Origin: Candidatus Micrarchaeota archaeon
GTDB lineage: Archaea > Micrarchaeota > Micrarchaeia > Anstonellales > JAHKLY01
Direction: 5' to 3'
DNA: 30,598 nt
NCBI GenBank assembly: GCA_020854825.1
Contig: JAHKLY010000004.1
Location: forward strand, 1 to 30,598
Shown: positions 5,090 to 21,600 of the stretch, piece after piece
Numbering within the stretch: position 1 is the stretch's first letter
How the letters are laid out: every line of letters starts with the position of its first letter
Notes under the pieces: generated by a model
Database searches by the model: none
The model's input: the letters and a program-made list of their open reading frames with translations, nothing else
What the model was told of the DNA's origin: nothing
Made by a program: the position numbers and the translations under genes

Positions 5090-5594
5090 TAAAATGAATT
5101 ATATAATTTTGCCTCATACCCAGTAATGCCCCTAATTAATTGAAAACCATTTCTTCTAAATAATCCTTGTGAAAATAAATTATCTAATCTGATAGTAGTT
5201 GAGATTTCAGTTAAATTATATCTTTCTGCAATTTCAACACATTTTTGTAAAAGTGCATCGCTAACTCCTTTTTCTTCAGTTTCAGAATCAATTGCAATTG
5301 TTAAATATTTCATTTTATCTTCATCTATAACATACGTTATCCACCCAATAACTATTTCTTGTTTTTTTGCGACAATCACTTTATTAGGTAAACTAAAATC
5401 TTCATTTTGTAATGAGGATAAAAATTGTTTAACTCCTTTTGAGTTCGCAATTCTTAAAACTTCATCAAGGTCTGTTGCTCTATCAAAGTTAACAAGTTCT
5501 ACTTTTGGATTAATTTGTTTAAACTTATATTTATTTGGGAGTATAGGCCTCCAAAATTAGTTGATTGCTCGTTTTCCTTTAATTCATTTTTCAT
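5086..5594 (-). pseudogene. GNAT (RimI-like) acetyltransferase with frameshifted or non-canonical start
   Basis: The 97-aa ORF has GNAT motifs (LTIAID..EEKGVSDALL; N..SQGLFRRNGF). Its frame stays open upstream to 5556 and encodes the GNAT-like N-terminus VELVNFDRATDLDEVLRIANS. A candidate upstream ATG (5594) is in another frame. Confidence 0.6.
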
Positions 5595-5633: not shown

Positions 5634-6179
5634 TTAATATTTTAGAATCACACAACTTGATCTGCTATTTGGTTGTCCTTTGTATTTATCTAATTTATGT
5701 TCAGTTTCAATAATGGAAGTTGCTAAAACTTTTCCTTTAAAGAGTTTAACTAACTCTTTGGGAACAGGTCTCCACCCATTATCAATAGGAAATGCATGAT
5801 ATGGATAATTATTAGGTACTGAAACTATAAGAATTCCATTTTTATTTATTAATTTTTCAATATTTTTAACTGTTTTTCCCAATTCTAAAATTGGAATGTG
5901 TTCTAATAAATGAGTTGCTAATACAATATCAAATTTATCTTTAATTTTAATAGGTTTGATAATATTATGTAAGTAATCTGGTTTTGTTGATTTTTTTATA
6001 TCCATTGTTTTAATTTGAATATTTTTAGAATTTAAATAATCATAAAAAGTTTGATTCCATGGTTGTTTTTTTGTTCTGTATTCTAAACTTTCTGAACCTA
6101 TATCTAAACCTGTTTTGAAATTTTGATTTAAAATTTTGTCTATTTTTTTCGTTACCCATTCAATTTCTTCTGTCCACAT
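5634..6179 (-). CDS. Class I SAM-dependent methyltransferase
   Basis: Motif I LDIGS, then FDIVLATHLLEH and LINKNGILIVSVP, typical of Methyltransf_11/23-like proteins. Confidence 0.8.
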   Translation of the reverse strand: MWTEEIEWVTKKIDKILNQNFKTGLDIGSESLEYRTKKQPWNQTFYDYLNSKNIQIKTMDIKKSTKPDYLHNIIKPIKIKDKFDIVLATHLLEHIPILELGKTVKNIEKLINKNGILIVSVPNNYPYHAFPIDNGWRPVPKELVKLFKGKVLATSIIETEHKLDKYKGQPNSRSSCVILKY

Positions 6180-6358
6180 GTTTTAAATTTAATAAGATAA
6201 GTTTTTAAAAAGAAGTTTAAAAAAATACCTATCTAATATTTTCTTTTCTAGATAAAAATACTAATAGATATATCAGATAATCAAATAGTTATCTTATCCT
6301 ATATAGATACTTATCTCTTTTTTGATAAAACTTTTAGTTTTCTTTTTGACACGCCTGA

Positions 6359-6478
6359 CTTTTTCTTTTTCTAAAAGAAAAAGTATGGCATTCAGCGCTC
6401 CAGGTTATCATCACTCTTTACCTATTTTCTTTTTTCCCGCAACGTGCGGCTTTTTTCTTTTTTAAAAGAAAAAAGGGG
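6359..6478. repeat. Two copies of an A/T palindromic hairpin element (TTTTCTTTT..AAAAGAAAA)
   Basis: Copies at ~6359-6384 (downstream of the sRNA) and ~6448-6478 (inside it). Related copies at 16309-16343 and 16422-16458. Confidence 0.75.
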
Positions 6479-6504
6479 CCGTCAGTAAACCTGCGTCTCT
6501 TCAT
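6392..6504 (-). ncRNA. Box C/D 2'-O-methylation guide sRNA for pre-tRNA-Trp (predicted Cm34 and Cm39)
   Basis: Minus strand: box C ATGAAGA (6504-6498), 12-nt guide GACGCAGGTTTA, D' CTGA (6485-6482), 67-nt spacer, C' GTGATGA (6414-6408), 12-nt guide TAACCTGGAGCG, D CTGA (6395-6392). The guides form 9 and 10 bp with the pre-tRNA-Trp in this window. The N+5 rule lands on C39 and C34. Confidence 0.9.
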
Positions 6505-6594
6505 ATAAACATAATTAAGTTAAAACACATTAAAAATATATTGATTAAAAAAGATCAAAATAATAAAAAAAGAAAAAGTTGTGTGATTTAAAAT

Positions 6595-6927
6595 TTAACA
6601 CTTATTTAATTTCATCATTGAATAAACAAATGTTATTATAAACAATACAAAACATACAAATCCCACTGAAGTTATTAATTCTATATACATCTCATTTGGC
6701 ATAAATATGTTATATCCAAATGCTGCTAATGTTAAAACAAAGAATATTATTGGTGCTACTATTGTTAATGTATTTACCTCTTGTTTTTTAGATAATGTAT
6801 TATCTGAAAATGGTTTCTCTTTTAATATTTCTTTTTTATCTAATCTTTTTGGTTTAGTTTTTCTTTTTGATTTTGGTCTACTTTTTGTTGATTTTTTTTG
6901 TGTTTTTTTATTTTTTAAAGTTGGCAT
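6595..6927 (-). CDS. Small membrane protein: Lys-rich N-terminus and two C-terminal TM helices
   Basis: 110-aa ORF with a GGTGA Shine-Dalgarno upstream and two hydrophobic helices. Confidence 0.7.
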   Translation of the reverse strand: MPTLKNKKTQKKSTKSRPKSKRKTKPKRLDKKEILKEKPFSDNTLSKKQEVNTLTIVAPIIFFVLTLAAFGYNIFMPNEMYIELITSVGFVCFVLFIITFVYSMMKLNKC

Positions 6928-6985
6928 ATCATCACCTTTCTAAATAAAAACAAATAACCTTTTTAATACTTCCTTTAGGAAGAGA

Positions 6986-9900
6986 TTATACTAACCTCTT
7001 ACCTTTTAAAGGATTTTTTTTAATTTGTCTTTTTCTATATGCAATAAATAAAATAAATACAATTATCACAAATAGAACAATCCCTATTATTAAGGAAGAA
7101 ATAACTGGTTTTTCTTCTGGTGTTTCTTCAATTGTTGGAGGTACATATGGTTTAGTTGTATCTATTGGTTTTTCATCTGGTATTTCTTCACTTGGTTTTT
7201 CTGGTACTATTATTTCTTCTTCTAATTCTTCTTCATCTATTTGTAATTCTTCTTCTTCAGTTGTTATTGGACTCTGTCCTACTGGTCTTGCACCACCACC
7301 AGTATAACTGCTTCCTCCAGGTGAGCCTCCATCTTCTTCAGTTTCTTCACCAAATAATGCATAAGTACTGAAATGAGTTACATTACCCCAAACATGTCTT
7401 GGGTTAACCTTGATTATACCTTGCTGAATAACTAATTCCCATTCATCAGATGTTTCATTGAAATAATACATTCTTAGTGAATCCTCATCAATATTCAAGT
7501 CATTAAGTTCAGTTGGATTGTAATATACTCTTATGATTGCCCATGAAAGATATGCAGTATCTTTTACTTCAATAGTTATACCTTTGAAAGGAACTTTGCC
7601 TATAGGTAAATCGGGATTTGTATCATTGACTTCTGTTGAATTTAATAATCTAACAGAAATAGAGAAATTATATGTTTCGTTTGCTGTTAAGTCTATTTCT
7701 AAATCTGAATTTGGTAATTCAAAAGTTTCTGTTTCATTTTCTTCAACTTCTATTCCTAATATAATATCTGTATAATTTCCATCTATGTCCCATTCACTAG
7801 TTATATTTGTTTCTGGATTTTCAATTGATAAAGTGCAATTATCAAGCTCCAAATAACCACCGTCAAACACAAGTTCACCCCTAAACGAAATTGCATTATT
7901 TCTACACAATGCATATTCATCTATTGTCCATATTGTTAATGATTCTTCTCCATCGTAGTTTATCCCATAATCTCCATTATTAATAAATTGACTGTTCCAT
8001 AAATCGAGATTTGAGAAAGAATTCATAATTCCGGTATCATCATCGCATACTCCATCATTATTCTCTAAAATTGTATCAACCACTGTAAGATCTAAATAGA
8101 TGCCCACATCCGGTGAATAGAAATATATGCCATCACAGGAATTGTTGTGAATATAAGAATCTGATATGAATGTGTTGTTTGCATCATCCGCATATATTCC
8201 ATAAACAAAATTTTCTATTTCACAGTTTATTATTTCAGTATTATTGAAACCTCTGATATTGATACCTATACCTGCATTATCTCCTGTGATTGAATACCCT
8301 TGACAATCAATTGTAATATTATCTGCAATAACATTTAAACCTGAATCTGCAAAACAAGAAAGATTTGCATCTAAACTAATATCAGAATCAACTTCATATC
8401 CACAATAAACCCCTGAGGGTTCAACATCTGTCCAAGGATGCCAATCAGTACCATTTCCAATCCAATAATCTCCAAGTGTTTCATGACGGAAAGGATAATC
8501 ACGTCCTACATCTGCCCAATTATCATCATTGAGATCAAATATTTCAAATAATTCCCATGAGCCTGTGCCGTTGGCAAAGTAATACCTGTTTCCGGAGGTT
8601 GAATCATTGTAATCGCTTGTGTCAGAATAGTCTTCAACCCACAAAGCACCAGTGATATTGTTGTGTAAAAACGATGAATTAATACCTAGATTATAAATGA
8701 CTGCCCACTCATCAAAACTAGTTAAACTTGAATTAATAAGTCTATTATTTGCACCCTCAATAACTACAGTCTCATACATTTCGGTAGATAGCGTCATGTT
8801 TGAAATATTATTATATGAAGAATTCTCATCAACAAATATGGAAACATACCACGCTAATGAATCGCTGTTATTAATGTTTGAATAACTTGTATTGAACAGC
8901 CAGATTCCACTATTGTTAATATAAGAATCTGTTAAATTTGAATAATCTGCATTGCAAAGGATTATTGCAGAAGCTTCAATACTATCTAAATTCTGTGCAC
9001 CATTGTAAAATAAGATAGGTCTGTCATCTGTTCCATTTACATTTGTAAAATTATTTGAACATACTTCTCCTCCCATTACAATATCTCCTCTACCTATAAA
9101 AACAGAATCAGTGAAGTTATTGCCAGTTGACTCTTCTAGGACTAAACCTACAAAATCACTTTCACCAGTTACATTAATAAACGTAGAATTAAAACTACCT
9201 AACAATGAAAATGCGCCTGCTGTAAAATCAAATAATGCATCAGTTTCAGTTATTGAAATAATATTTTCAAACGTGTTGTTTAAACCAAAATATACTAAAA
9301 CTCCAATCCCAGAAGCCGAATATGAGGAGATGTTAGTAAAAGTATTATCTGTTGAAATATATGAAAATAAAGGCACACTTTGATTTGAAAGATAATTTAA
9401 ATTAATTTCTGAAAATACTGTGGCGCTTGTATTGTAATTCAAAATTCCTGCAATAATAAATTCAGATTCATCTATTTCCCCATATGAAATTGATACATTA
9501 TGAATATTTGATTCATCAACAAAATATGCTAAAACTCCCATAGCATAATTTTCTATAGTACAATTTTCTAACCTAAAGTTTGAAACATTATATGGATACA
9601 CTCCAATACCAGTTCCATTACCGAGTAATGTTGAACCATTACAGTCAATGTAAACATCTGACACATTCACAACTAAAGGCATATCAACATATTCATCAAA
9701 ACAAAGAGATACACTTTCGTTTATGACATAATATATACTATACAGTTCTCCTTCATCTAATAGAAACATGTCGAGCTCATCAGGGCCAACAGTGTAAACC
9801 CTGCTACCCCAAGTTGAATTGTCTGAAAGGTTAACGCAGGTGGACGGGACGTAAGAGCAGTCGTGATTACAGGTAAGCAAGGTGTTACTGTCGTCATCAA

Positions 9901-12900
9901 ACAGGATGTTACAGATGTTGTCGCCTTCATTATTATTGGAGTTAGAAGATAGGTAAATGTCCCTATCTGAGTTTTCACATGCGGTATTGTTGGTAAGGGT
10001 ATTGCTGTTGGAGTTAGAATCTAGAAAGATGCCTGCCCAGTTGTTGGGTGCAGTATTATTGGTGAGGGTGTTATTGGAACTGAGTTCGAGGAAGATACCT
10101 TCTGTATTTTCGGAAGCGTTGTTGCTGGTGAGAGTGTTGTTGGAACTGGAGTAGAGGTAGATGCCGAAATCGTTAGAACTGGCTGTGTTGCTGGTGAGAG
10201 TGTTGTTGGAGCTGGAGGAAAGGTAGATGCCGACATTGTTGTTGGAGGCTGTGTTGTTGGAGAGGGTATTGTTAGAGCTGGACCATAGGTAGATGCCGTC
10301 CCAGATGTTAAAGGTGACGGTGTTGTTGGTGAGGGTATTGTTAGAGCTGGAGTCGAGGAGGATGCCGTAGCCGTTGTTGGAGGAGGCTGTGTTGTTGGTA
10401 AGTGTGTTGGAGCTGGAGGTGAGGTAGATTCCTGTGTCTTCATTGGAGCTGGCGGTGTTGTTAGTGAGGGTGTTGTTGGAGCTGGAGACGAGGGAAATAC
10501 CAGTCGCGTAATCAACCACTTGGCAATTGGAGATGTTGACAAACTCCTTGCTGTTGATAGTGATACCATCCCCGTCATCATCTGTTCCATTAATGATAGA
10601 ACCATTACACTCCAGGTAGCAGTGGGTGCAATTGAAGAAAAGCGCAGCTTGGCCGGAACCAGCATTAAGTTCATAGGTGTCAGTACATAAGGTAACATTG
10701 CCGTTAACGTACAAGATCCCGTCCGGCCCACTGACATTTGCCACTAACCCCTGGTAAGTGCTCTCGTTCAGCAAGTCGACGCAGCCGGAATAGGGCGTGG
10801 GCGCAGTGTAATTGATGGTGAAGGTCCAGTTCGTTTCGTCACCCCAGGCATTGTTTGAGGCGTTTGCTGCGCCAATGCAATAGACATTCCAGATATAAAC
10901 ACCATTAGCTAATGGCTCGACAGTGCACGAATCGCCGGTTGTTTCATTCGTAGCGCAGTCGCCTGTCCAGCTGCCGGAAATGTTATGGTAAACAGTGCAG
11001 TTGCTTTCGATGTTTACGGTGTAATTTAGCGTGGTCGCGTTTGTGTCCAGTGTTTCAGAATCTGTTGGATAAACTAAGGTTACGTTTACTGGTTCTTCTG
11101 GACCTGTCACATTAACCGTGAATGTCCAGTTTGTTTCACCCCAGGCATTGTTTGATGCATTTGAAGAGTCAACACAATAAACATTCCATTCATAAACCCC
11201 GTTTTCCAATACATCAATTTCACAAGATGCGCCTTCTGTATTATTTGTTGCACAGTCAGCGCCCCAGCCTGTTTTGTTATGGTAAACAGTGCAGTTTGCT
11301 TCAATGTTAACAGTATAATTTAGGGTTGTTGAGTTTGTTTCAATTATTGCTTCATTATCAGGGTATGTTAGAGTGACGTTGATTGGTAAAGAAGGTTCAG
11401 GTTCTTCTTCACATACGTCCGTACATTCATCATTGGAATAACAGCTATCGCCACCTAATGTGTAGCCGGTTACCTGCTCTGAACCAAATTGATGATTCAA
11501 GTATGGCGGGTCTGCATAGTTTGGGCCGACAATTATTCCAAATGTATCATTGAAAATATCGTTTACTGCGAAATTATTTCCATCGCCATTCCCTTCAAAA
11601 ACAGGCACTGGATGTTCTACATAACACGCTAATCCCATTCCTTCTAATGCATCACAAGTAAGTTCTGTTGATTCTGCAATATAAAATGTAGCATTATCTG
11701 AGCCGCCCAGGAGGGTAAAATTTATACAGAACACAAAATAATTTTCAGATGTGTTAAAATTAGCATATTCAATTAATTGTCCATCAATTAAAATCTGCTC
11801 CAGATTTCCATCACCCACCATTGCATGAAGCATATATACTGAATTATTGCAATTTCTTTCACCTATAAATATTGGTGAATGCGAAACTGAATATTCGGAA
11901 ATTTGTATCTCACCGCAAACATCATCACAAGAAGGCTCAAGCAGGCATACGCCGCAAGTTGCAAACCTGTCAAAATATGTTGAATTGTCTGGGGTGGAAG
12001 TTGTATAATTAGTATTTGACCAATTATTCTCAGGGTAATCCTCATCCTCTATATCTTTGCCTAAATTGCCGCAGGCAGTATTATCAATTAAAGTATTTCC
12101 ATTACTGTTCAATGATAATAAAAATCCTTTATTGGTATTATAACTTGCTGTGTTGTTTATAAATTCACAATCAGTGCTTCCAACTATGTGGAAACCATAA
12201 TTATTCACTATTGCAGTATTATTTTCAAATGTTGTTGATGAAACAGAAGACAAATGAAAACCGTAATTGTTTCCGATTGCAGTATTATTTGCAAAAAGAC
12301 CGCCCGAATTGCTGCATGTATGCATACCATAGGCCGTGTTGTTCATTGCTGTATTGTTTATCATATCATTTCCGAATCCACCTTCAATTTCAAGGCCGTC
12401 ACCAGTATTGAATGAAGCATTATTATTCATTAAAGAAATGAAACTGCTGTCGCGCACATAAACTCCTCTGCCGCCGTTTGACAAAAGAGAATTATCAAAA
12501 ACAGTATAATTGATACCAATACGTATTGTGATGCCGTCATTTGTATTGTCTTTAATTATATTATTCTGTATTAAACCATAATCTGAATTTCCAGTGACAT
12601 TAATTCCTGTTGAAAATGATTCTATTGTGCAATTCTTTATTGTTATATTATTGCGCCCGTCTATAAGAATTCCATTGTCATTGTTCTGCCCTGATATTTT
12701 CTCGCCGGCACAGTCAAGTGTAATGTTGTCCGCGCCGATTATTAATCCTGTTCCTTCGCATGAAACCAAGTTTTCGGTTAATGTCAAATCTTCGGTTATT
12801 GTGTCACCGCAAGAAACTTCTTCTCCTCCACAAGTCCCAGTCTGATTAAAATATGTTGAATTAGCAGGATCGGATGTCTGGTAATTTGTTGAAAGCCAAT

Positions 12901-14650
12901 TATTGTTAGGATATAACAAATCAGATATGTCGTATACTCCCTCTTCTTCTGCCACGTTATTAAAACAAACACTATTGTCTTCAAATTCATTATCATCCGA
13001 CCCTTCATCAATATAAATGCCTTCATAAAGATTATAATTGAAAGTGCATGAAGTTACGGTGTTATTTGGACTGCCATACATGTATAATCCATAACCATTC
13101 TCTTCTCCATCACTATTATTATTTGCAATTGATTGGGTTATATTATTACCATTAGATTCATACAACTGTATACCTGAATAAAAGTTATAATTGAAAGTTG
13201 AATTGTAAATTGTATTATTATGGCTTGTTTCAAATGAGATGCCATTAACATTATTTGAACTGTTGCAGTTTGTTATTGTGGCATTGTCAGTCCATAATAG
13301 GTATATGGCGCTAATATAATACCCATTAATAAGAGAGCCAATGACTGTTACATTATTAATAAATGAATCATCTGCATTGCATAAGAATAATTCTGAGATT
13401 GTTTGGTCTTCAAGGATTATTGTTTCGTTGGAAAAAATAATAGGCAAGCCGCCTTCGCCAGTGTTGTTTGCAATGATATTATTGCATTGGTATTCGCCAT
13501 TTTCAGCAGCCAAATAAACAGGCGCTCCCGTTAAGTTTGAAAATGTGTTATTTATTACTGTGTTTCCAAAAGCGCGGTAAAACATTATGCCGCCTGTACC
13601 GCTAACAAAATCATTATATGCGACAAATGTTCCGGATATATTGTCCCTAATCTCAATATTAGTATAATATTCTGGCGCTCCAAAAGTGTTATTTAAAACA
13701 TCTGTGTTATTTGAGTATAAGGAAAGCGGAAACAGATTATTTGTGAATGTATTGTTTACCAAAGAAGAATTATCTGACCCTGCTTTCAGTTGTGCACCAT
13801 AATAATAATCAATAATATTACAATTACTAACAGTCATGCCAGTATATCCATTATTATAAATCCCTTTATAACAGCAATCACCAGTACTGCTGCTGATTAT
13901 TGAGTTATTACAGTCAATAACCACATCATTTGCGCCGATGGTTAATGCGTTTACATTTCCAAATTCGTAGGTATCCTCACAAAGCGTGATTGAGTCAAGC
14001 ACTGTGAATCCAGCAGTCATGTTTCCTGTTATTTTCCCAGCATAAGTGTCTGAATCAGTTAAATTGACACATGACTCTTCAGGAACATAACAATAACTCA
14101 TCTCATCATCAAAATCGCAAGTTCCTTCTTCTTCTACCAAAATCCAGGTACAAGTAGCATAAAGATTTCCATAAGCCCCAATTCCGATAAATTGAAAATA
14201 GGATGAATCACACAACCCTTCACTTAGAGAACCACAATTCTCAATATATTCTCCTTCACATGTTGGACATACACTACAATCTTCAGGACAAGAATCACAA
14301 GATTCAGCACACATAGTATCACAAGACGCATCTCCGCAGAATAATTCTTCACAAGGGTCTGGTTCTGGTGGTTCTTCACAAGAATTGCACCAGTCATCAG
14401 CATAACAGCCTCCACCATCAGTAAAATCACAGCCTGATTCGGGACATAATGATCCCTCCTCATCCCACCAGCATGGTGGTGGGGGGAAAGGATCACACCA
14501 TATCCCACAGGCATCGTCTTCGTAACAATCAGCACCATCAGTATATGGACACATACCTCCGCAGGTTCCATCATCCTCAAAACAATCGGCAAAACTCAAT
14601 CCTCCTAAAAATAAACATACTATTAATGATACTAAAAAAATCTTATTCAT
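6986..14650 (-). CDS. Giant surface glycoprotein: Cys/acidic-rich N-terminus, multiple NosD/CASH right-handed beta-helix domains, duplicated Ig-like module, PGF-pre-PGF-like C-terminal domain, TM anchor
   Basis: Signal peptide; many GIxL..S.NN....N repeats and N-x-S/T sequons; LRMYYFNE...W...VWGNVTHFSTYAL; acidic/Pro linker; C-terminal TM helix with basic tail. Confidence 0.85.
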   Translation of the reverse strand: MNKIFLVSLIVCLFLGGLSFADCFEDDGTCGGMCPYTDGADCYEDDACGIWCDPFPPPPCWWDEEGSLCPESGCDFTDGGGCYADDWCNSCEEPPEPDPCEELFCGDASCDTMCAESCDSCPEDCSVCPTCEGEYIENCGSLSEGLCDSSYFQFIGIGAYGNLYATCTWILVEEEGTCDFDDEMSYCYVPEESCVNLTDSDTYAGKITGNMTAGFTVLDSITLCEDTYEFGNVNALTIGANDVVIDCNNSIISSSTGDCCYKGIYNNGYTGMTVSNCNIIDYYYGAQLKAGSDNSSLVNNTFTNNLFPLSLYSNNTDVLNNTFGAPEYYTNIEIRDNISGTFVAYNDFVSGTGGIMFYRAFGNTVINNTFSNLTGAPVYLAAENGEYQCNNIIANNTGEGGLPIIFSNETIILEDQTISELFLCNADDSFINNVTVIGSLINGYYISAIYLLWTDNATITNCNSSNNVNGISFETSHNNTIYNSTFNYNFYSGIQLYESNGNNITQSIANNNSDGEENGYGLYMYGSPNNTVTSCTFNYNLYEGIYIDEGSDDNEFEDNSVCFNNVAEEEGVYDISDLLYPNNNWLSTNYQTSDPANSTYFNQTGTCGGEEVSCGDTITEDLTLTENLVSCEGTGLIIGADNITLDCAGEKISGQNNDNGILIDGRNNITIKNCTIESFSTGINVTGNSDYGLIQNNIIKDNTNDGITIRIGINYTVFDNSLLSNGGRGVYVRDSSFISLMNNNASFNTGDGLEIEGGFGNDMINNTAMNNTAYGMHTCSNSGGLFANNTAIGNNYGFHLSSVSSTTFENNTAIVNNYGFHIVGSTDCEFINNTASYNTNKGFLLSLNSNGNTLIDNTACGNLGKDIEDEDYPENNWSNTNYTTSTPDNSTYFDRFATCGVCLLEPSCDDVCGEIQISEYSVSHSPIFIGERNCNNSVYMLHAMVGDGNLEQILIDGQLIEYANFNTSENYFVFCINFTLLGGSDNATFYIAESTELTCDALEGMGLACYVEHPVPVFEGNGDGNNFAVNDIFNDTFGIIVGPNYADPPYLNHQFGSEQVTGYTLGGDSCYSNDECTDVCEEEPEPSLPINVTLTYPDNEAIIETNSTTLNYTVNIEANCTVYHNKTGWGADCATNNTEGASCEIDVLENGVYEWNVYCVDSSNASNNAWGETNWTFTVNVTGPEEPVNVTLVYPTDSETLDTNATTLNYTVNIESNCTVYHNISGSWTGDCATNETTGDSCTVEPLANGVYIWNVYCIGAANASNNAWGDETNWTFTINYTAPTPYSGCVDLLNESTYQGLVANVSGPDGILYVNGNVTLCTDTYELNAGSGQAALFFNCTHCYLECNGSIINGTDDDGDGITINSKEFVNISNCQVVDYATGISLVSSSNNTLTNNTASSNEDTGIYLTSSSNTLTNNTASSNNGYGILLDSSSNNTLTNNTVTFNIWDGIYLWSSSNNTLSNNTASNNNVGIYLSSSSNNTLTSNTASSNDFGIYLYSSSNNTLTSNNASENTEGIFLELSSNNTLTNNTAPNNWAGIFLDSNSNSNTLTNNTACENSDRDIYLSSNSNNNEGDNICNILFDDDSNTLLTCNHDCSYVPSTCVNLSDNSTWGSRVYTVGPDELDMFLLDEGELYSIYYVINESVSLCFDEYVDMPLVVNVSDVYIDCNGSTLLGNGTGIGVYPYNVSNFRLENCTIENYAMGVLAYFVDESNIHNVSISYGEIDESEFIIAGILNYNTSATVFSEINLNYLSNQSVPLFSYISTDNTFTNISSYSASGIGVLVYFGLNNTFENIISITETDALFDFTAGAFSLLGSFNSTFINVTGESDFVGLVLEESTGNNFTDSVFIGRGDIVMGGEVCSNNFTNVNGTDDRPILFYNGAQNLDSIEASAIILCNADYSNLTDSYINNSGIWLFNTSYSNINNSDSLAWYVSIFVDENSSYNNISNMTLSTEMYETVVIEGANNRLINSSLTSFDEWAVIYNLGINSSFLHNNITGALWVEDYSDTSDYNDSTSGNRYYFANGTGSWELFEIFDLNDDNWADVGRDYPFRHETLGDYWIGNGTDWHPWTDVEPSGVYCGYEVDSDISLDANLSCFADSGLNVIADNITIDCQGYSITGDNAGIGINIRGFNNTEIINCEIENFVYGIYADDANNTFISDSYIHNNSCDGIYFYSPDVGIYLDLTVVDTILENNDGVCDDDTGIMNSFSNLDLWNSQFINNGDYGINYDGEESLTIWTIDEYALCRNNAISFRGELVFDGGYLELDNCTLSIENPETNITSEWDIDGNYTDIILGIEVEENETETFELPNSDLEIDLTANETYNFSISVRLLNSTEVNDTNPDLPIGKVPFKGITIEVKDTAYLSWAIIRVYYNPTELNDLNIDEDSLRMYYFNETSDEWELVIQQGIIKVNPRHVWGNVTHFSTYALFGEETEEDGGSPGGSSYTGGGARPVGQSPITTEEEELQIDEEELEEEIIVPEKPSEEIPDEKPIDTTKPYVPPTIEETPEEKPVISSLIIGIVLFVIIVFILFIAYRKRQIKKNPLKGKRLV
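10020..10505 (-). repeat. Tandem 22-23-aa beta-helix repeats (GIYLxSSSNNTLTNNTAxxN), about 7 units, similar at DNA level
   Basis: gtgttgttgg..ag.gt.ttgtt.gagctgga recurs every ~66-69 bp. Confidence 0.85.
10805..11390 (-). repeat. Direct duplication of a ~93-aa Cys/Trp module
   Basis: PINVTLTYP..TTLNYTVNIEANCTVYHN..NNAWGETNWTFT is followed by PVNVTLVYP..TTLNYTVNIESNCTVYHN..NNAWGDETNWTFT. Confidence 0.85.
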
Positions 14651-14753
14651 ATTAACATACCCCCCAAAAATATGCTTAAATCAAACAAATAACCTTTTTA
14701 AATATTCCTAAACTTGCAGAATGATTTAAATATATTTCATTTAAAAGAAAAGT

Positions 14754-16253
14754 ATGGCAAATTCAAAACATTTAACAGAATTAATATCATTTTTACAAGA
14801 TAAAGGATATGTTTGGGGACCAGAACCAGAGATATATAATGGGTTATCTGGATTTTATACTTACGCACCATTAGGCAAATTATTGAAAAATAATATTGAG
14901 AATAAAATAAGAGAATTTTTTATTAAAAATGAATTTTGGGAAGTCGAGTGTCCAATTATAATGCCAAAAATAGTTTGGGAGGCATCAGGGCATTTAGATG
15001 GGTTTACAGATTCAATTATTTTTTGTTCAAAATGCAACGCAAGTTATAGAGCTGATAAACTTTTAGAAGAACAATTACCTAACCAAGGACATACTATTAA
15101 TGATATACTTCCTTTAATAAAAGAAGGAAAATTAAAATGTTCATCATGTAAAGGAAATTTTAAAATGGAAATATTATCTCATGAACTAATGATGAAAACT
15201 ACGGTTGGTTTAGATTTAGAAGCATATAATAGACCTGAAACAGCTACAACAACTTATTTGCCATTTAATAGATATGTAACATTTTTTAGAAATAAAATTC
15301 CATTTGGTGTTTTTCAAATTGGAAAAGCATTTAGAAATGAAATTTCTCCACGACAACATATTTTAAGAATGAGAGAATTTACACAAGCAGAAGCACAATT
15401 AATTATTTTTGACAAAAATGAATTTGAAAAATTTGATAAAATAAAAAATAATAATATCTTTTTATGGTCTGCTGAAAATCAATTAAATAAAAAAGATCCT
15501 TTTGAAATCAAAATGTCAGACGCAATAACAAAAAAAATGTTTAAAAACAAAGCATATGCTTGGACAGTTTATTCGGCTTATGAATTATTTTTATCTTTTG
15601 GAATTCCTAAAGAAAATATCAGAGTAAGACAACATAGAAATGATGAAAAAGCATTTTATGCTGATGATGCATGGGATATTGAAATAAACCTTAAATCATT
15701 TAATTGGGAAGAAGTTTGCGGAATTCATGATAGAACAAATTATGATTTAAAACAACATATGCAAAAATCTGGAAAATCTTTTGAAATATTAAATGAGAAA
15801 ACAGGAAAAAAAGAAATTCCCCACATTTTAGAAATTGCATTTGGAACTGATAGGCCTGTTTTTGCATTATTAGATTTATTTTATTCAAAAGAAGATAAAG
15901 AAAATGGAAAAACTATGTTTAAAATCCCATATTTAATGGCACCTATAAAAACTGCGATTTATCCATTAGTTAAAAAAGAAGGATTACCTGAATTAGCACA
16001 AAACATTTATGAAAAATTATCAAAACATTTTGTATGTGTTTATGATGAATCTGGAAGTATAGGTAGAAGATATCTACGTGCTGCAGAACAAGGAATACCC
16101 TTTTGTATTACAGTTGATTTTGATACTTTAAAGGATAATACAGTAACTATAAGAGATAGAAATACTGAAGAACAAAAACGTATAAAAATAGATAAATTAA
16201 TTGAGATAATTGATGATTTAATCTCAGAAGAAACTAGTTTTAAAAAAGTATAA
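14754..16253 (+). CDS. glyS: Glycine--tRNA ligase (archaeal/eukaryotic homodimeric type)
   Basis: EIYNGLSGFYTYAPLG, ASGHLDGFTD, RPETA, QIGKAFRNEISPRQHILRMREFTQAE, and the anticodon-binding domain SGSIGRRY..GIPFCITVDFDT. Confidence 0.97.
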   Translation: MANSKHLTELISFLQDKGYVWGPEPEIYNGLSGFYTYAPLGKLLKNNIENKIREFFIKNEFWEVECPIIMPKIVWEASGHLDGFTDSIIFCSKCNASYRADKLLEEQLPNQGHTINDILPLIKEGKLKCSSCKGNFKMEILSHELMMKTTVGLDLEAYNRPETATTTYLPFNRYVTFFRNKIPFGVFQIGKAFRNEISPRQHILRMREFTQAEAQLIIFDKNEFEKFDKIKNNNIFLWSAENQLNKKDPFEIKMSDAITKKMFKNKAYAWTVYSAYELFLSFGIPKENIRVRQHRNDEKAFYADDAWDIEINLKSFNWEEVCGIHDRTNYDLKQHMQKSGKSFEILNEKTGKKEIPHILEIAFGTDRPVFALLDLFYSKEDKENGKTMFKIPYLMAPIKTAIYPLVKKEGLPELAQNIYEKLSKHFVCVYDESGSIGRRYLRAAEQGIPFCITVDFDTLKDNTVTIRDRNTEEQKRIKIDKLIEIIDDLISEETSFKKV

Positions 16254-16308
16254 TTTTTTCTTTTGATTAAACTTTTTCTTATTTTTTGATTACGTTTTTC
16301 TTTTTACA

Positions 16309-16343
16309 AGGTTTTTCTTTTCTTTTTAAAGAAAGAAAAAGGT
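16309..16343. repeat. Palindromic element just downstream of tRNA-Trp; near-identical to 16422-16458 inside the T-loop intron; may also act as terminator for the convergent glyS and tRNA
   Basis: aggtttttcttttctttttaaagaaagaaaaaggt versus aggtttttctttcttttcttaaaagaaagaaaaaggt. Confidence 0.8.
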
Positions 16344-16348
16344 TAAAA

Positions 16349-16565
16349 TGGGGCCACGGGGATTTATTCACTCCTCTTTCTTATTCAAGAGAAAGATACC
16401 TATTTTCTTCCTTTTTCGTTGAGGTTTTTCTTTCTTTTCTTAAAAGAAAGAAAAAGGTCATTGAACCCCGACCCGCAGGTTTCTTACGTAGCTCACTCTT
16501 AACAAACTATAGATAGTTTGATAAAACCTGGAGCCTGCTACGCTACCAAGTTACGCTATAGCCCC
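16349..16565 (-). tRNA. trnW: tRNA-Trp(CCA) with two introns (37/38: 16527-16481, 47 nt; 58/59: 16460-16364, 97 nt)
   Basis: Exons 16565-16528, 16480-16461 and 16363-16349 join into a 73-nt cloverleaf. Acceptor GGGGCTA/TGGCCCC, anticodon stem GCAGG/CCTGC with loop CTCCAGA, T-stem CGGGG/CCCCG with loop TTCAAAT. The 3' CCA is not encoded. A TTTATA element lies ~20-25 nt upstream. Confidence 0.93.
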
Positions 16566-16685
16566 ATTTAAAGATATTTTAAATGTATAAATGTTTATAA
16601 AATAGACGCAATTTTTTACAAACACAAAACCCCATTTTATAAAAAGAACAAAGTATTATATACTTTTAGATACATAATATATATG

Positions 16686-16790
16686 TCGTGAGATGAAGAT
16701 TTCGCCAGATTGCTTTGACTATCTGTAAGGAAGTGGCTGAACGTGCAGATAGGTTTTAGTTGCAATCTAGAGTCATAGGATTTTGGCTTT
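16686..16790. ncRNA. Candidate structured ncRNA
   Basis: GC-richer intergenic patch with nested stems: gccaga/tttggc, tgact/agtca and ctatctgta/tgcagatag. It also has ATGAAGA (16693-16699) and CTGA (16737-16740), and a TATA-like element at ~16655 on the + strand. Confidence 0.4.
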
Positions 16791-16818
16791 GGCTTTAAAT
16801 TCTCACAACAACATTTTT

Positions 16819-17886
16819 TCAACTCAATTTTAAAATTTCATTGACTATTATTTTAGCACTATTTGACTGTATCTTCATTGCAGAAGCACCTGGATGTCCC
16901 CCCCCACTTAAAATTAAATCAGACAGATTTTCCTTTATTTTTTTTACAATAATGTCAGAACCAAAACCAATCTCCTGTGCTTGTAAATTTGATCTAATTG
17001 TAATTAATTTTTGACCATATCCGATTAAAACAAAGGGAGTGTCTTCATTGTATTTATCAAAAACAGCTCCTGTAGCTTTTGATTTAGATGGAAAACTAAA
17101 TGTTTTAACAATCTTATCTAATTGTAAGATTACAATTTTAATTTCTCTATTTGAAAAATTTATTTTTTTAATACTTGAAAATTTATCAGCAACTCTTGCT
17201 ATTTCTTCTAATTTTTCCATTGCTTGTGAAGAAATAGAAGTAAATAATATTCTATCATTTAAAACAGATTCATAAAATTCCAATGTATTTGGAAATTTAG
17301 AATAAATCCCAATATAATCTAAAACAATTGATTTTTCTTTATCCTTTTCTTCTGGATCATAATGTATACTTTTATCTCCTGTTAATGCTATTTTACTTAA
17401 TTCTTCTGCTTTTTCAGTGTTTAATCCTAATAATTTTGCTATCTCACAACACATCCAACCAGCAGTATAAAATGAGTCTCCTCCTATTTCCCAGGGAGAT
17501 AAATAAATATCAGCTTCTTTTTTAATCTGTTCTTCTATTGGATGATGGTCTATTATAATTAAAGGAATTCCTGATTTTTTGATTAATTGTCTTGCTTCTC
17601 TACTTTCAGAATTAGTTGAAAAATCAGTTAAAATAATTAAAGGTGCTTCTTCATATTGTAAATTTCGTATATCACTTAATGCATCACTAGGTTCATATGT
17701 TACTCCTCTATTTTGATAATTTAAAATCCGTTTAGGTTTTAATGCTAAATAAATAGCTAGTGCTCCTGTAATGCCATCTGCATCATTATGATATCTAATA
17801 ATAATTTTTGAGGATTTTTTAATCTCATCAGCAATTTGAGCCATTATTGGCTTCATTTTTTCAGTTATTGGATCTTGAATAAACAT
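16819..17886 (-). CDS. RecJ-like DHH/DHHA1 phosphoesterase (exonuclease)
   Basis: Motifs HNDADG, TDF, IDHH and GGGH. Confidence 0.88.
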   Translation of the reverse strand: MFIQDPITEKMKPIMAQIADEIKKSSKIIIRYHNDADGITGALAIYLALKPKRILNYQNRGVTYEPSDALSDIRNLQYEEAPLIILTDFSTNSESREARQLIKKSGIPLIIIDHHPIEEQIKKEADIYLSPWEIGGDSFYTAGWMCCEIAKLLGLNTEKAEELSKIALTGDKSIHYDPEEKDKEKSIVLDYIGIYSKFPNTLEFYESVLNDRILFTSISSQAMEKLEEIARVADKFSSIKKINFSNREIKIVILQLDKIVKTFSFPSKSKATGAVFDKYNEDTPFVLIGYGQKLITIRSNLQAQEIGFGSDIIVKKIKENLSDLILSGGGHPGASAMKIQSNSAKIIVNEILKLS

Positions 17887-18642: not shown

Positions 18643-21600
18643 ATGTATATGAAGAAAATAATATTTATTGCGTTTTGTCTATTTATACTTTTAGGATGTA
18701 TAGAAACTGGTGAAATACCCAAATTACAAGAGTCTTTGACTTATGAACATATTGATTTAGTTGGAATGGTTGTTGGTGAAGAAAGCCAGGATTCTGTTTT
18801 CATATCTAATGATAAAAAAATAGCTAAAATTGAATTAACTCCAGATTTAGAAGAAACTAAAGGATTTCTTGGGATGTCATTAGATATAAAATCGACTAGA
18901 CCACTAAAACTAAATTCAATATATTCTAATGAAACACATAATAATATTGACTTAAATTCAGTAACAATAAACTCTTTTTTTGAAAAAAGAACTTCTAATA
19001 TTCTTACTATAAGTAATACACCCACATTTGAAAGTAAAAAAGTTAAACAAACAATAATTGTTGAAAATAAAGAAAACATCGAAAAAAATATTACTTTGTC
19101 CTTGACCTTTGACATTAATACAACTAACATAAATAGTTTAAATAAAGAAATATCTATTACTGCAGATAAACCAGTTGTTTTTAAAACAGACAATTATGAA
19201 TTGAATTTTGACTATTTAGAAGTTTCATCTCCTTCATTTTCATTTTCTTATTTCTCAGATAATGAGATGTATCATTTTGACTGGACAGATATGAAAGATA
19301 CAGAACACGCAGTTATTATAAAAACAGATGATGAACTTACATCACATATTGAAATTCAATCTATTATACATTTAAATCCTTTAGAAACAGTTGTTTTTGA
19401 TCCTTCATATTCAGAAAGAGATTTAGCATCTATGATAAGTATAACTTCCTTTTATGGGGTTTCAGATTTAACAGATATAAAAATTGGAGATATAAACGGA
19501 GATTATGTTGTAATGTCTAAAAATGCAATTTATTATATTAAGAATGACGGAAGTTTTGTCCAAAGCAGGAATGATATTAATAAAAAATATGCTGCTAAAT
19601 TTATTTTTCCTTCTGGAACAACATATGAATTTACAAGTATTGACATTGGTGATTACGATGGAGATGGAAAAGAAGATATTTTAACAACTATACATCCAAT
19701 TGGCGCATTTTTAATAAAAGGCAATAATATAGTTTCAGGTTTGAAATCTATAACTATTGATCCTTATAATCCTGGACCTCATTATTCTTTTGTTGCTCCT
19801 CTAGGAAGTTATTATATTTTTAATAACGCACATATTATAGATGGAAAAATTTGTTTTGGAGTTGGGAATTATCCACAAGGTGGAACTATCTACTCACATA
19901 ATGTTTTTTGTTATAATTCTCCATTTTCCAGCTCTGGAAGTTTTGATGATCTGAATGCATTAAAATTTAATGCAGATTATGATTTTTGGTATAGACAAAC
20001 ATATTCTGGAGGACCGGGGTGTCCTGGAGTTCCTTATTATTTTAATAGTAAATTGTATATTGGTGCACCATGTGTAAATGGAATTTCAATAATAGATTCT
20101 CCTTCAGGGACTTTAACTTATACTGAACCTACAAATATTGGTCCTTCGGGATTTGGATCAAAATTCACACATTTTGATAATTCTATATTTGTCTTAGCAA
20201 ATAATAGAATTTTAAAAACACAAGTTGGTGGTGCACAAGTTGATTTTATAAACAGACCTGGATTGATTAGTTTAGATTCTAATGGAAAATACGTATATGC
20301 AGGCGCATTAGGAGAAGTTTATATCGTAGATCCAGATACAGGAGAAATTATTTTAGAAATAAATGGAGACATTTCTGGACCTATTGCTGCAGGTTCATTA
20401 GGTATATTAACAGACGAAGGATTTGTAATTGTTGAAATAACAGAAGAAGATTTAGAAGAATGTTCTGTTCCTCCCATTTCTGGACCTTGGTTAATAGACA
20501 GAGATACAGTTATTTGTTCAGGAAATTGGAATGGAAGAGACACTGGTTCTGGATATATTCAAGTAACTGATGATTATATTACCATAACATGCGAAGATGA
20601 TACTATAATTAATGGAAATGGATATTATGGCACTGCTATTAAAATAAATGATAAGATTGGAATAACATTAGAAAATTGTAAATTTGAGGAATATGATAAT
20701 GGAGTAATTATTGAAAAAGGAACGGAAAATAGTATATTAAATAATCATTTTGATAAAATGCAGAATACTGCAATATATCTAAAAGAAGGAAAAACACATA
20801 ATATCATAGGTAATAAAATATCTGAAGGGGGAACTGGTATTAGGATACAAAATTCAAATAATAATATTCTATCTGACAATATTATTTATGAGAATACACA
20901 AACAGGCATAATTATAGGTGACGATGAGATGGCACCCGGAGGCTATGGAAACTCATTTTCAAATAATAAAATAATTAATAATCAAAATGGTTTGGTTTTA
21001 CATATTTGTAATAATCCAGGGGGTGTACCAAATACTTTTAATTCAGATATAATTTGCGATAATTCTTATGAAAATGTAATTATAGAAGATACGGGGTGTT
21101 GGAGTACATTAACAAATTCTGAAGTTACATGTGATTCATCAATAATTGGTTTTTGTGATATTCCTTGTAATGATGAATACACAGGATGTGTTAATTTAAA
21201 TGACCCTTCAACTTATGCTGGAAGAATAGAATTTAATTCAGACGCAAACAGATTTGATATTTTAGAAAGTATTACACTTTGTGAAAATGAATACATATTG
21301 AGTTCTAGATTATATTTTACTGCAAATAGCATTACGCTAGACTGTAATTCTTCATTATTAATAAGTGACATTCCTAAACAAGGAACAGGAATTTTTATTA
21401 ATGGCTATGATAATTCAATAATAAAAAATTGCCATATTAAAAATTTTGATACTGGAATAGGAACAAGTGGAACTGGAGGGGGGACGCTACTTAATTTACA
21501 AGTTTTAGATAATCAATTAGAATCAAATAATAGAGGGATAGATACACAAATTACTCGTAATATACTTATAAAAAATAATAAATTCTCAAATAATCAACTT

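Follow-up and report, generated by a model that had tools for sequence, protein, structure and literature searches.

How have a guide RNA and the tRNA that it modifies come to carry similar inserts? The question is raised by two loci in a window of 30,598 nucleotides (nt) from a Candidatus Micrarchaeota archaeon (GenBank assembly GCA_020854825.1, contig JAHKLY010000004.1), which is the whole stretch of DNA analysed and forms contig 7 of a genome labelled G000 here (its contigs are labelled C1-C7, other genomes G001, G002, etc.). The assembly comprises 828,311 bases on 7 contigs, with a G+C content of 27.5-31.2% (28% overall) and an estimated completeness of 97.6%. Fibrillarin, Nop5 and a tRNA-splicing endonuclease among its proteins mark the genome as archaeal, and its size and composition would fit the DPANN type. 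A box C/D small RNA (sRNA) gene and a tRNA-Trp gene with two introns both lie on the minus strand, in the intergenic gaps 6180-6594 and 16254-16818, respectively. An earlier note had listed plus-strand strings that recur in the sRNA insert and in one of the tRNA introns (tcactc, the 13-mer tacctattttctt, cgt..gg, a T/A hairpin and gtca), and, for the sense (minus) strand, TGAC on the 5' side with GAGTGA close to the 3' side; all of them are indeed present at both loci. In the explanation that we consider best overall, and probably correct, the sRNA is a tRNA-Trp guide that carries and retains a module of a tRNA-intron family, while its likeness to the Trp intron is a trait of that family.

The sRNA gene has the make-up of an archaeal double-guide C/D RNA (Table 1): C and D boxes, internal D' and C' boxes, 12-nt guides, and known modification sites at the fifth pair. 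Counted from the D' box, the fifth pair falls on the C at 16479, which is C39, and for the D guide on the C at 16531, which is C34. A strict search of the genome for the double-guide C/D pattern returned 6392-6504 as its sole match. The variant C box AUGAAGA is also found in the orthologues of G001 and G021, the remaining ones having AUGAUGA or GUGAUGA. Both guide duplexes extend 2-3 base pairs (bp) into the anticodon intron, and the substrate is therefore the precursor tRNA. Fibrillarin (E 1.6e-85) and Nop5 (E 8.8e-49) are encoded in the genome, L7Ae being outside the search; together with these three proteins the sRNA would direct 2'-O-methylation of C34 and C39 in pre-tRNA-Trp. Judged by its boxes and guides, it is the predicted trans-encoded counterpart of the guide housed by the tRNA-Trp intron in other archaea, which methylates C34 and U39 according to the parts of two papers available to us (PMC4090602, PMC7994747; here and below, published work is cited from such parts). 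The intron-encoded guide of the Haloferax and Pyrococcus sR50 type shares with it the targets, positions 34 and 39, the double-guide layout and the pairing of both guides with the intron-containing precursor (PMC4090602, PMC7994747, PMC7714728). It differs in that the guide described here is a separate gene 10 kb from the tRNA, whose own 47-nt anticodon intron lacks the boxes. A further difference concerns the interval that separates box D' from box C'. The archaeal sRNAs described in the literature available to us have a short terminal loop, the kink-loop (K-loop), at this point, whereas the spacer measures 67 nt here and 3 nt in three orthologues.

Table 1. Features of the box C/D sRNA and tRNA-Trp loci, in window coordinates
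Feature	Position	Strand	Remarks
Second module, sRNA 3' trailer	6338..6384	-	Hairpin 6358-6384, 8-nt linker, mirror tract (11/12)
Box C/D sRNA gene	6392..6504	-	Trans-encoded guide predicted for tRNA-Trp Cm34 and Cm39; boxes and guides read from sequence
D box CUGA	6392..6395	-	
D guide, 12 nt	6396..6407	-	10 Watson-Crick pairs with pre-tRNA-Trp 16534-16525, across the exon-intron junction
C' box GUGAUGA	6408..6414	-	
D'-C' insert, 67 nt	6415..6481	-	Very probably one hairpin module of the intron family
Shared 13-mer	6419..6431	-	Last 7 nt of the mirror tract plus UAGGUA of the module closing stem
Second purine tract GAAAAAAGAAAA	6425..6436	-	Exact mirror image of the purine arm
Linker mini-hairpin CCGCA-CGU-UGCGG	6437..6449	-	
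Insert hairpin	6450..6475	-	Pyrimidine arm 6475-6464, loop 6463-6462, purine arm 6461-6450
D' box CUGA	6482..6485	-	
D' guide, 12 nt	6486..6497	-	9 Watson-Crick pairs with pre-tRNA-Trp 16482-16474
C box AUGAAGA	6498..6504	-	Variant of RUGAUGA, one change at position 5
Imperfect hairpin like the modules, tRNA-Trp 3' trailer	16309..16343	-	86% over 37 nt to the Trp intron query
tRNA-Trp(CCA), two introns	16349..16565	-	Called by ARAGORN once 16364-16460 is deleted; 42 compatible deletion variants
T-loop intron, 97 nt	16364..16460	-	Between positions 58/59; holds one module
Module in the Trp T-loop intron	Hairpin 16425-16455, linker 16417-16424, mirror tract 16403-16416	-	
Canonical 37/38 intron, 47 nt	16481..16527	-	Without C/D boxes; ARAGORN i(38,47)

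Half-loci that consist of C', guide and D only (..UGAUGA-UAACCUGGAGC.-CUGA), with the upstream C box and D' guide absent, occur in related genomes: L017 (G001:C2:11828-11851), L020 (G005:C24), L011 (G015:C26, two copies 119 nt apart), L027 (G004:C136), L018 (G004:C93, a second partial copy) and L030 (G001:C2:12694). They are possibly single-guide half-mers or decayed duplicates of the tRNA-Trp guide.

The tRNA-Trp gene escapes standard detection, as ARAGORN with default settings finds 0 tRNAs in the window and Rfam misses the gene as well. Deletion of 16364-16460 together with the 47-nt canonical intron yields an ARAGORN tRNA-Trp(CCA), and the segment thus behaves as the T-loop intron that the earlier note had taken it for. 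Its splice motif is of the relaxed kind, with a central helix of 4 bp, a T-stem helix of 3 bp and an inner helix of 1 bp; the motif reads GUUC/GAAU in the central helix with bulges AAU and AAA, UUCA/UGAA and GUUC/GAAU being alternative central helices.

Both the sRNA insert and the T-loop intron are built as one recurrent module, whose parts follow each other in a fixed order. A short closing stem comes first, then a hairpin of perfectly paired pyrimidine and purine arms, a small linker and a mirror purine tract, and the closing stem ends the module. The hairpin of the insert is a perfect 12-bp stem that is present in the minimum-free-energy fold. The second purine tract matches the mirror of the purine arm in 12 of 12 positions against 11 of 12 for a direct copy, and in the fold the GGU of the 13-mer pairs with GCC at 6479-6477 as a closing stem. 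The end strings shared with the Trp intron arise differently at the two loci: in the sRNA they are the D' box (TGA(C)) and the C' box (GUGA), in tRNA-Trp the central helix of the splice motif (UUCA/UGAA or GUUC/GAAU).

A scan of G000 for perfect stems of at least 9 bp with a pyrimidine arm and a purine arm returned 50 T-rich/A-rich hairpin loci, of which approximately 39 lie inside tRNA genes as introns, in the T-loop, anticodon loop, D-arm, variable region and other positions; most tRNA introns of G000 have the module as their body. In 24 cases the tRNA was verified by deleting one interval around the hairpin and asking ARAGORN for a tRNA across the junction. The other 15 loci, which lie between tRNA-like exons and mostly in genes with two such inserts, were assigned by reading the flanks by eye. 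Outside the tRNA genes we find the sRNA insert, the sRNA trailer, six loci after stop codons of open reading frames (ORFs), two loci between RNA genes on contig 1, and a coding locus at C3:165797 that falls outside the pattern. Rfam matches on seven of the non-tRNA hairpin loci are limited to a partial tRNA and to chance microRNA or long non-coding RNA (lncRNA) models. The order hairpin-then-mirror is found on the sense strand of the host in 23 of the 24 verified tRNAs and in the sRNA; the exception is one ambiguous ARAGORN call with flanks that resemble a minus-strand tRNA. ARAGORN with its intron option detects 10 tRNAs in G000 and Rfam gives 7 tRNA matches over the cut-off; standard tools find so few in a nearly complete genome because the genes are interrupted by modules. 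Indeed, nearly every tRNA gene of G000 appears to be interrupted. Many hold two or more non-canonical introns, e.g., at C2:220440-220670, C4:81050-81260 and C6:5800-6100. Similar modules are present in 23 of 201 sampled genomes of the phylum, from several families that all belong to the same order or class.

The closest relatives of the sRNA insert are tRNA introns other than that of its target. When the insert was compared by BLAST with 41 genomes, it matched a tRNA T-loop intron of G004, from another family of the same order, with 97% identity over 57 nt (E 1.4e-20), and the anticodon intron of tRNA-Glu(CUC) at C2:220541-220620 with 83% over 72 nt (E 5.2e-14), while the match with the Trp intron is limited to 75% over 56 nt (E 0.047). 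Two GC-rich motifs, CGGCCCCTTTT and GCCGYACGTTG, occur in the genome only in the sRNA insert and the tRNA-Glu intron. In the linker mini-hairpin the tRNA-Glu copy has a C -> U change that keeps the pair as G-U. The Trp T-loop intron in turn shows 93% identity over 68 nt with two other T-loop introns, at C6:5946-6014 and at C2:75334-75402, and its matches at E <=0.001 do not include the sRNA insert. Scores of the insert against each of the 50 hairpin loci, taken on either strand, put the Trp intron in row 10 of 100, below rows that include the insert's own two, that of the tRNA-Glu intron (score 85) and those of four further tRNA loci. The insert thus very probably belongs to the intron-module family. 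The resemblance between guide and target is family architecture and not a guide-target relationship, because each copy has its nearest relatives elsewhere. Since the module is common in small RNA genes, it is to be expected that guide and target both have one.

Near-identical modules are found at different positions in non-orthologous tRNAs and in the genome of another family, and their ends form a short stem that closes the module (CGGCC/GGCCG in G004). Module copies would accordingly move or convert between small RNA genes, and the most likely origin of the sRNA copy is an intron like that of tRNA-Glu. The insert of G000 differs in subtype from that of the congener G001 and has a weak closing stem, which suggests that a Glu-type copy has recently replaced or converted it. 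That the orientation is uniformly sense speaks for copying from one RNA gene to another, for a step at the RNA level or for selection acting on the transcript. The proposal of one mobile element, similar to a miniature inverted-repeat transposable element (MITE), in both loci therefore stands as far as both belong to one hairpin-module family, and falls as far as it makes the two copies each other's closest relatives. No enzyme that would match a MITE or an insertion sequence was found in G000 in searches for Y1 transposases, RVT_1 reverse transcriptases and TnpB-type domains, other transposase families being outside these searches.

A regularity of the modules that had escaped the earlier note is the mirror tract, i.e., the purine arm reversed but not complemented. 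A mirror of the own purine arm with at most one mismatch lies within 45 nt 3' of the hairpin in 40 of the 50 loci and is perfect in 22. The mean mismatch to the own mirror is 0.98, compared to 2.49 for mirrors swapped between loci, and 0 of 5000 permutations reach the observed mean of 0.98; among 39 loci with asymmetric arms the mirror beats a direct copy in 29, loses in 3 and ties in 7, and among 24 distinct asymmetric arms it is better in 17, worse in 3 and equal in 4, although the module copies are related and not independent, so that both the permutation and the sign counts overstate the significance. The sRNA insert reads A4GA6G followed by GA6GA4, and the tRNA-Glu intron A3GA3GA4G followed by GA4GA3GA3. 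Between orthologous inserts the hairpin varies in step with the mirror tract: in G001 and G021 the tracts read C-U5-C-U3-C, G-A3-G-A5-G and A5-G-A3-G, and the inserts of G005 and G007 have one U or A fewer than those of G001 and G021 in each corresponding run. The linkers are usually 8 nt long and often perfect or near-perfect DNA palindromes (CGTTAACG, CCCTAGGG, CCCCAGGG, CCTGTACT), that of the sRNA and tRNA-Glu copies being a 13-nt mini-hairpin instead.

A Watson-Crick hairpin followed by a mirror copy of one arm, with short loops, is the layout of an intrastrand triplex. The sequences of the modules have this layout; any triplex would be of the purine type on the sense strand and of the pyrimidine type on the antisense strand. 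They resemble the intrastrand triplex motifs of prokaryotes (Holder et al. 2015, PMC4666352), which consist of three homopurine/homopyrimidine tracts on one strand with two short loops, one pair of tracts being Watson-Crick complementary and the third mirror-symmetric. The published motifs are DNA repeats of bacteria and tRNA is unmentioned in the available part of that paper, whereas the modules described here lie inside transcribed RNA genes and are sense-oriented.

The boxes and both guides of the sRNA are found in 14 orthologous genes from 13 genomes including G000, with D'-C' spacers of 3, 3, 3, 14, 21, 23, 25, 35, 35, 67, 82, 82, 83 and 84 nt. The inserts of 82-84 nt (G001, G021, G005, G007) are modules of another subtype, and G002 and G004 have plain GC hairpins at this site. 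Of the 11 spacers of at least 14 nt, 8 fold as a stem that is closed within one nt of both ends, and the closing pairs vary by genome (AGUCC/GGACU, GGCCC/GGGCU, GAGCUCC/GGAGUUC, a pure GC hairpin). In these folds the predicted spacer helix of the orthologues abuts the D' box and ends approximately 3 nt before the GA of the C' box, which is the geometry of a kink-turn (K-turn). Eukaryotic small nucleolar RNAs (snoRNAs) have long D'-C' intervals as well. The orthologue spacers match, at the internal C'/D' motif, the layout of a K-turn with a closed stem that is described for the terminal C/D motif in the sources available to us; a K-loop is what these describe at C'/D' in archaeal sRNAs, and the stem in G000 is only 3 bp long and set back from the boxes. 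The insert would sit at the apex of the C'/D' K-loop, the only site of the RNA at which an extra helix would point away from the protein core. Given this position and the fact that both 12-nt spacings are intact, the insert is more likely retained than not. Its place at the loop apex, the intact guide spacing and the unrelated stem-loops in orthologues together suggest that removal is unneeded. If the insert is indeed a member of the intron family, we lean towards its being kept through maturation, as a stem that lengthens the C'/D' motif at its apex.

Several observations weigh against parts of this explanation. The closing stem of the G000 insert is weak, with 3 bp and with 2 and 5 unpaired nt outside, and would make a non-standard K-turn stem, unlike those of the orthologues. 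The tRNA-gene census leans on the 15 assignments made by eye out of 39, and some of the ARAGORN identities, such as 'Pyl' calls, are doubtful. Regarding the triplex, the tracts in the sense RNA would give the A-rich purine motif, which is a poor triplex former in RNA, and in many copies the mirror tract also serves as loop in a small stem, a competing structure for the triplex. The six sequencing runs listed with this DNA are all DNA from sludge metagenomes, none being RNA. Contigs of four DNA runs over 6000-17000 do not bear on empty alleles, as none joins across the sRNA insert or the Trp intron, 6000-6733 being barely covered. The remaining points of this kind concern splicing. A relaxed splice-motif candidate around the insert cuts right after CUGA, at the module position of the 5' splice site in the tRNA-Glu intron; its product, CUGA-GA-GUGAUGA, is one nt below the compact orthologues; and at ARAGORN-compatible boundaries, 2 of the 24 verified tRNA introns have a strict motif and 12 a relaxed one.

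These last points belong to the alternative that survives best, in which the sRNA has a genuine intron: the tRNA-splicing endonuclease would cut a relaxed bulge-helix motif, directly behind the D' box and some nt ahead of the C' box, a ligase would join the ends, and the mature guide would have a short K-loop. The sRNA insert is akin to two introns whose removal is obligatory, that in the anticodon loop of tRNA-Glu and the T-loop intron of G004, and the candidate product resembles the orthologues with 3-nt spacers. A strict motif that brackets the insert and keeps the boxes was not found, whereas the tRNA-Glu intron, used as a positive control, was the top candidate with a textbook motif (helices of 5 bp outside, 4 bp in the centre and 4 bp inside). 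In this strict scan only box-keeping candidates were counted, as the low-complexity arms give many spurious matches. Since few of the verified tRNA introns have a strict motif, its lack around the sRNA insert is weak evidence. The relaxed candidate (central helix UACU/GGUA of 4 bp, an outer helix of 3 weak pairs, only G-U or A-U, an inner helix of 0 bp, and bulges GAC and AAG) comes from a single one of the 72 cut pairs that preserve the boxes, about as many as chance would give, the orthologues having 0-4 such pairs. Candidates of the type (4,0,4,6,0) in G005, G007 and G021 were rejected as stretches of an unbroken closing helix and not bulged motifs. In G001, G021, G005 and G007 the insert is closed by an unbroken helix of 5-7 bp that abuts the boxes, with a 3-4 nt bulge as in a K-turn; the plain GC hairpins of G002 and G004 stand at the same site; and a cut homologous to the 3' splice site of tRNA-Glu would destroy the C' box. 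The substrates listed for the endonuclease in the part of PMC7714728 at hand are tRNA, rRNA and two mRNAs, with no C/D sRNA among them. In favour of splicing, unusual endonucleases of DPANN archaea have been linked with relaxed specificity in the accessible sections of PMC5829648, and the enzyme of G000 is a fused protein. We regard excision as rather unlikely on this evidence, and retention remains the explanation that we follow.

The tRNA-splicing endonuclease of G000 is one fused protein of 414 amino acids (aa), with an N-terminal domain and two catalytic-type domains (C3:146727-147230 on the minus strand, ORF L014:1192-2436). The abundance of relaxed splice motifs may be connected with this fusion.

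Much less can be said for the view that guide and target share one particular element, either by descent of the T-loop intron from guide sequence or through docking of the hairpins, both of which had been put forward in the earlier note. The 13-mer occurs exactly twice in the genome with both strands counted (6419-6431 and 16397-16409), and the sRNA and tRNA-Trp genes lie 10 kb apart. In the congener G001 the two are also on one contig (L004 and L036; G001:C30), approximately 5.7 kb apart, and the neighbourhood of guide and target is therefore conserved. The local alignment of 6411-6485 with 16364-16460, the comparison that the earlier note had asked for, scores 42, compared to a mean of 21.8 (standard deviation 3.3) for dinucleotide shuffles of one partner. 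This score is reached in 0 of 2000 one-partner and 0 of 2000 both-partner shuffles, and a common substring of at least 13 nt arises in 25 of 2000 shuffled pairs. The likeness therefore exceeds composition. The 13-mer itself is the end of a mirror tract plus the AGGUA of a closing stem, a similar CAGGTAG follows the module of another T-loop intron at C3:60283, and in the congener G001 AAGAAACAGGTAC stands at this place of the Trp intron and the sRNA insert is of the other subtype, neither of the two having the 13-mer. Above all, each copy has much closer relatives elsewhere. Descent of the T-loop intron from the guide finds no support next to its kinship with the T-loop introns of two other tRNAs, and docking lacks specificity, as cofolding is predicted to gain -3.5 kcal/mol for the Trp intron and 0 to -7.9 for five others. 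The earlier note had conceded that a specific tie would lose its basis if the element were abundant; besides the many copies in tRNA genes, at least five orthologous sRNAs carry a module. A particular element shared by guide and target is thus highly improbable.

Chance likeness between low-complexity, A/T-rich sequences without homology has the least to commend it and is close to negligible: the genome is A/T-rich, the arms are T or A runs with one or two C or G, and the sub-string AAGAAAAT of the 13-mer occurs 327 times, yet the shuffles never attain the alignment score, the parts come in the same order at both loci, the GC-rich motifs in common with the tRNA-Glu intron are unique in the genome, and the mirror rule is locus-specific.

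The family to which we assign the insert raises the wider question of how archaeal tRNA introns reach new sites. A 2026 preprint on the tRNA introns of Asgard archaea reports, in the part available to us, no general route by which they arrive. G000 provides an unusually clear case, as the moving unit is known by a strict internal rule (hairpin plus mirror), is sense-oriented, is found in several families and has entered a second class of RNA genes. With a recognisable, sense-oriented and recurring module, a comparison of filled and empty sites is tractable. The modules might even constitute a self-propagating class of archaeal introns that spreads at the RNA level, of which one copy invaded a C/D guide RNA, though we think this unlikely. 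Spread would then proceed by reverse splicing, with exposed loops as the targets, or by conversion from one transcript to another, and would explain the sense orientation of 23 of 24 copies; the three-tract fold, possibly a triple helix, would be the recognised feature. If true, the sRNA of G000 would be the first guide RNA with an intron of the endonuclease type, or with an expansion segment derived from an intron. For the biology of C/D ribonucleoproteins, the orthologues with their spacer range of 3-84 nt offer a natural test of extra RNA load at the C'/D' apex.

A known parallel is formed by the transposed tRNA introns of the Thermoproteales (Fujishima et al. 2010, as reported in the portion of PMC4090602 available to us). 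These belong to another lineage, whereas the genome described here is small and AT-rich, its size suggesting the DPANN type; in addition, its copies have a defined hairpin-plus-mirror module, which is also found 3' of genes and inside a C/D sRNA. Within the accessible parts of the literature searched, we found no account of a C/D sRNA with an intron or a module that resembles one, nor of archaeal tRNA introns with mirror-repeat modules.

The six modules behind protein-coding ORFs lie 1-57 nt past the stop codon and in the same sense (C3:237015, C2:61052, C2:194770, C1:12109, C5:38507 and C3:138846), and the module may serve as a 3'-end element besides forming intron bodies. In a bolder variant of the self-propagating reading, which we think unlikely, the module after stop codons might act as such a 3'-end element, and some of the 'interrupted' tRNA genes might be transcribed as separate halves.

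Over the window, Rfam gives nothing at gathering scores and five weak matches at E <=10, none of them at the sRNA. The match over 16336-16442 is to a human lncRNA model and was discarded as spurious. Weak matches to eukaryotic C/D snoRNA models at 22542-22617 and 5132-5195, both on the plus strand (E 2 and 3.7), are inside ORFs and far below gathering scores, and are probably due to chance. Two very long ORFs are present in the window, of 2554 aa (6986-14650, minus strand) and 1800 aa (18643-24045, plus strand). The G+C-rich islands at 10641-11272 are located inside the ORF of 2554 aa and are therefore not RNA genes.

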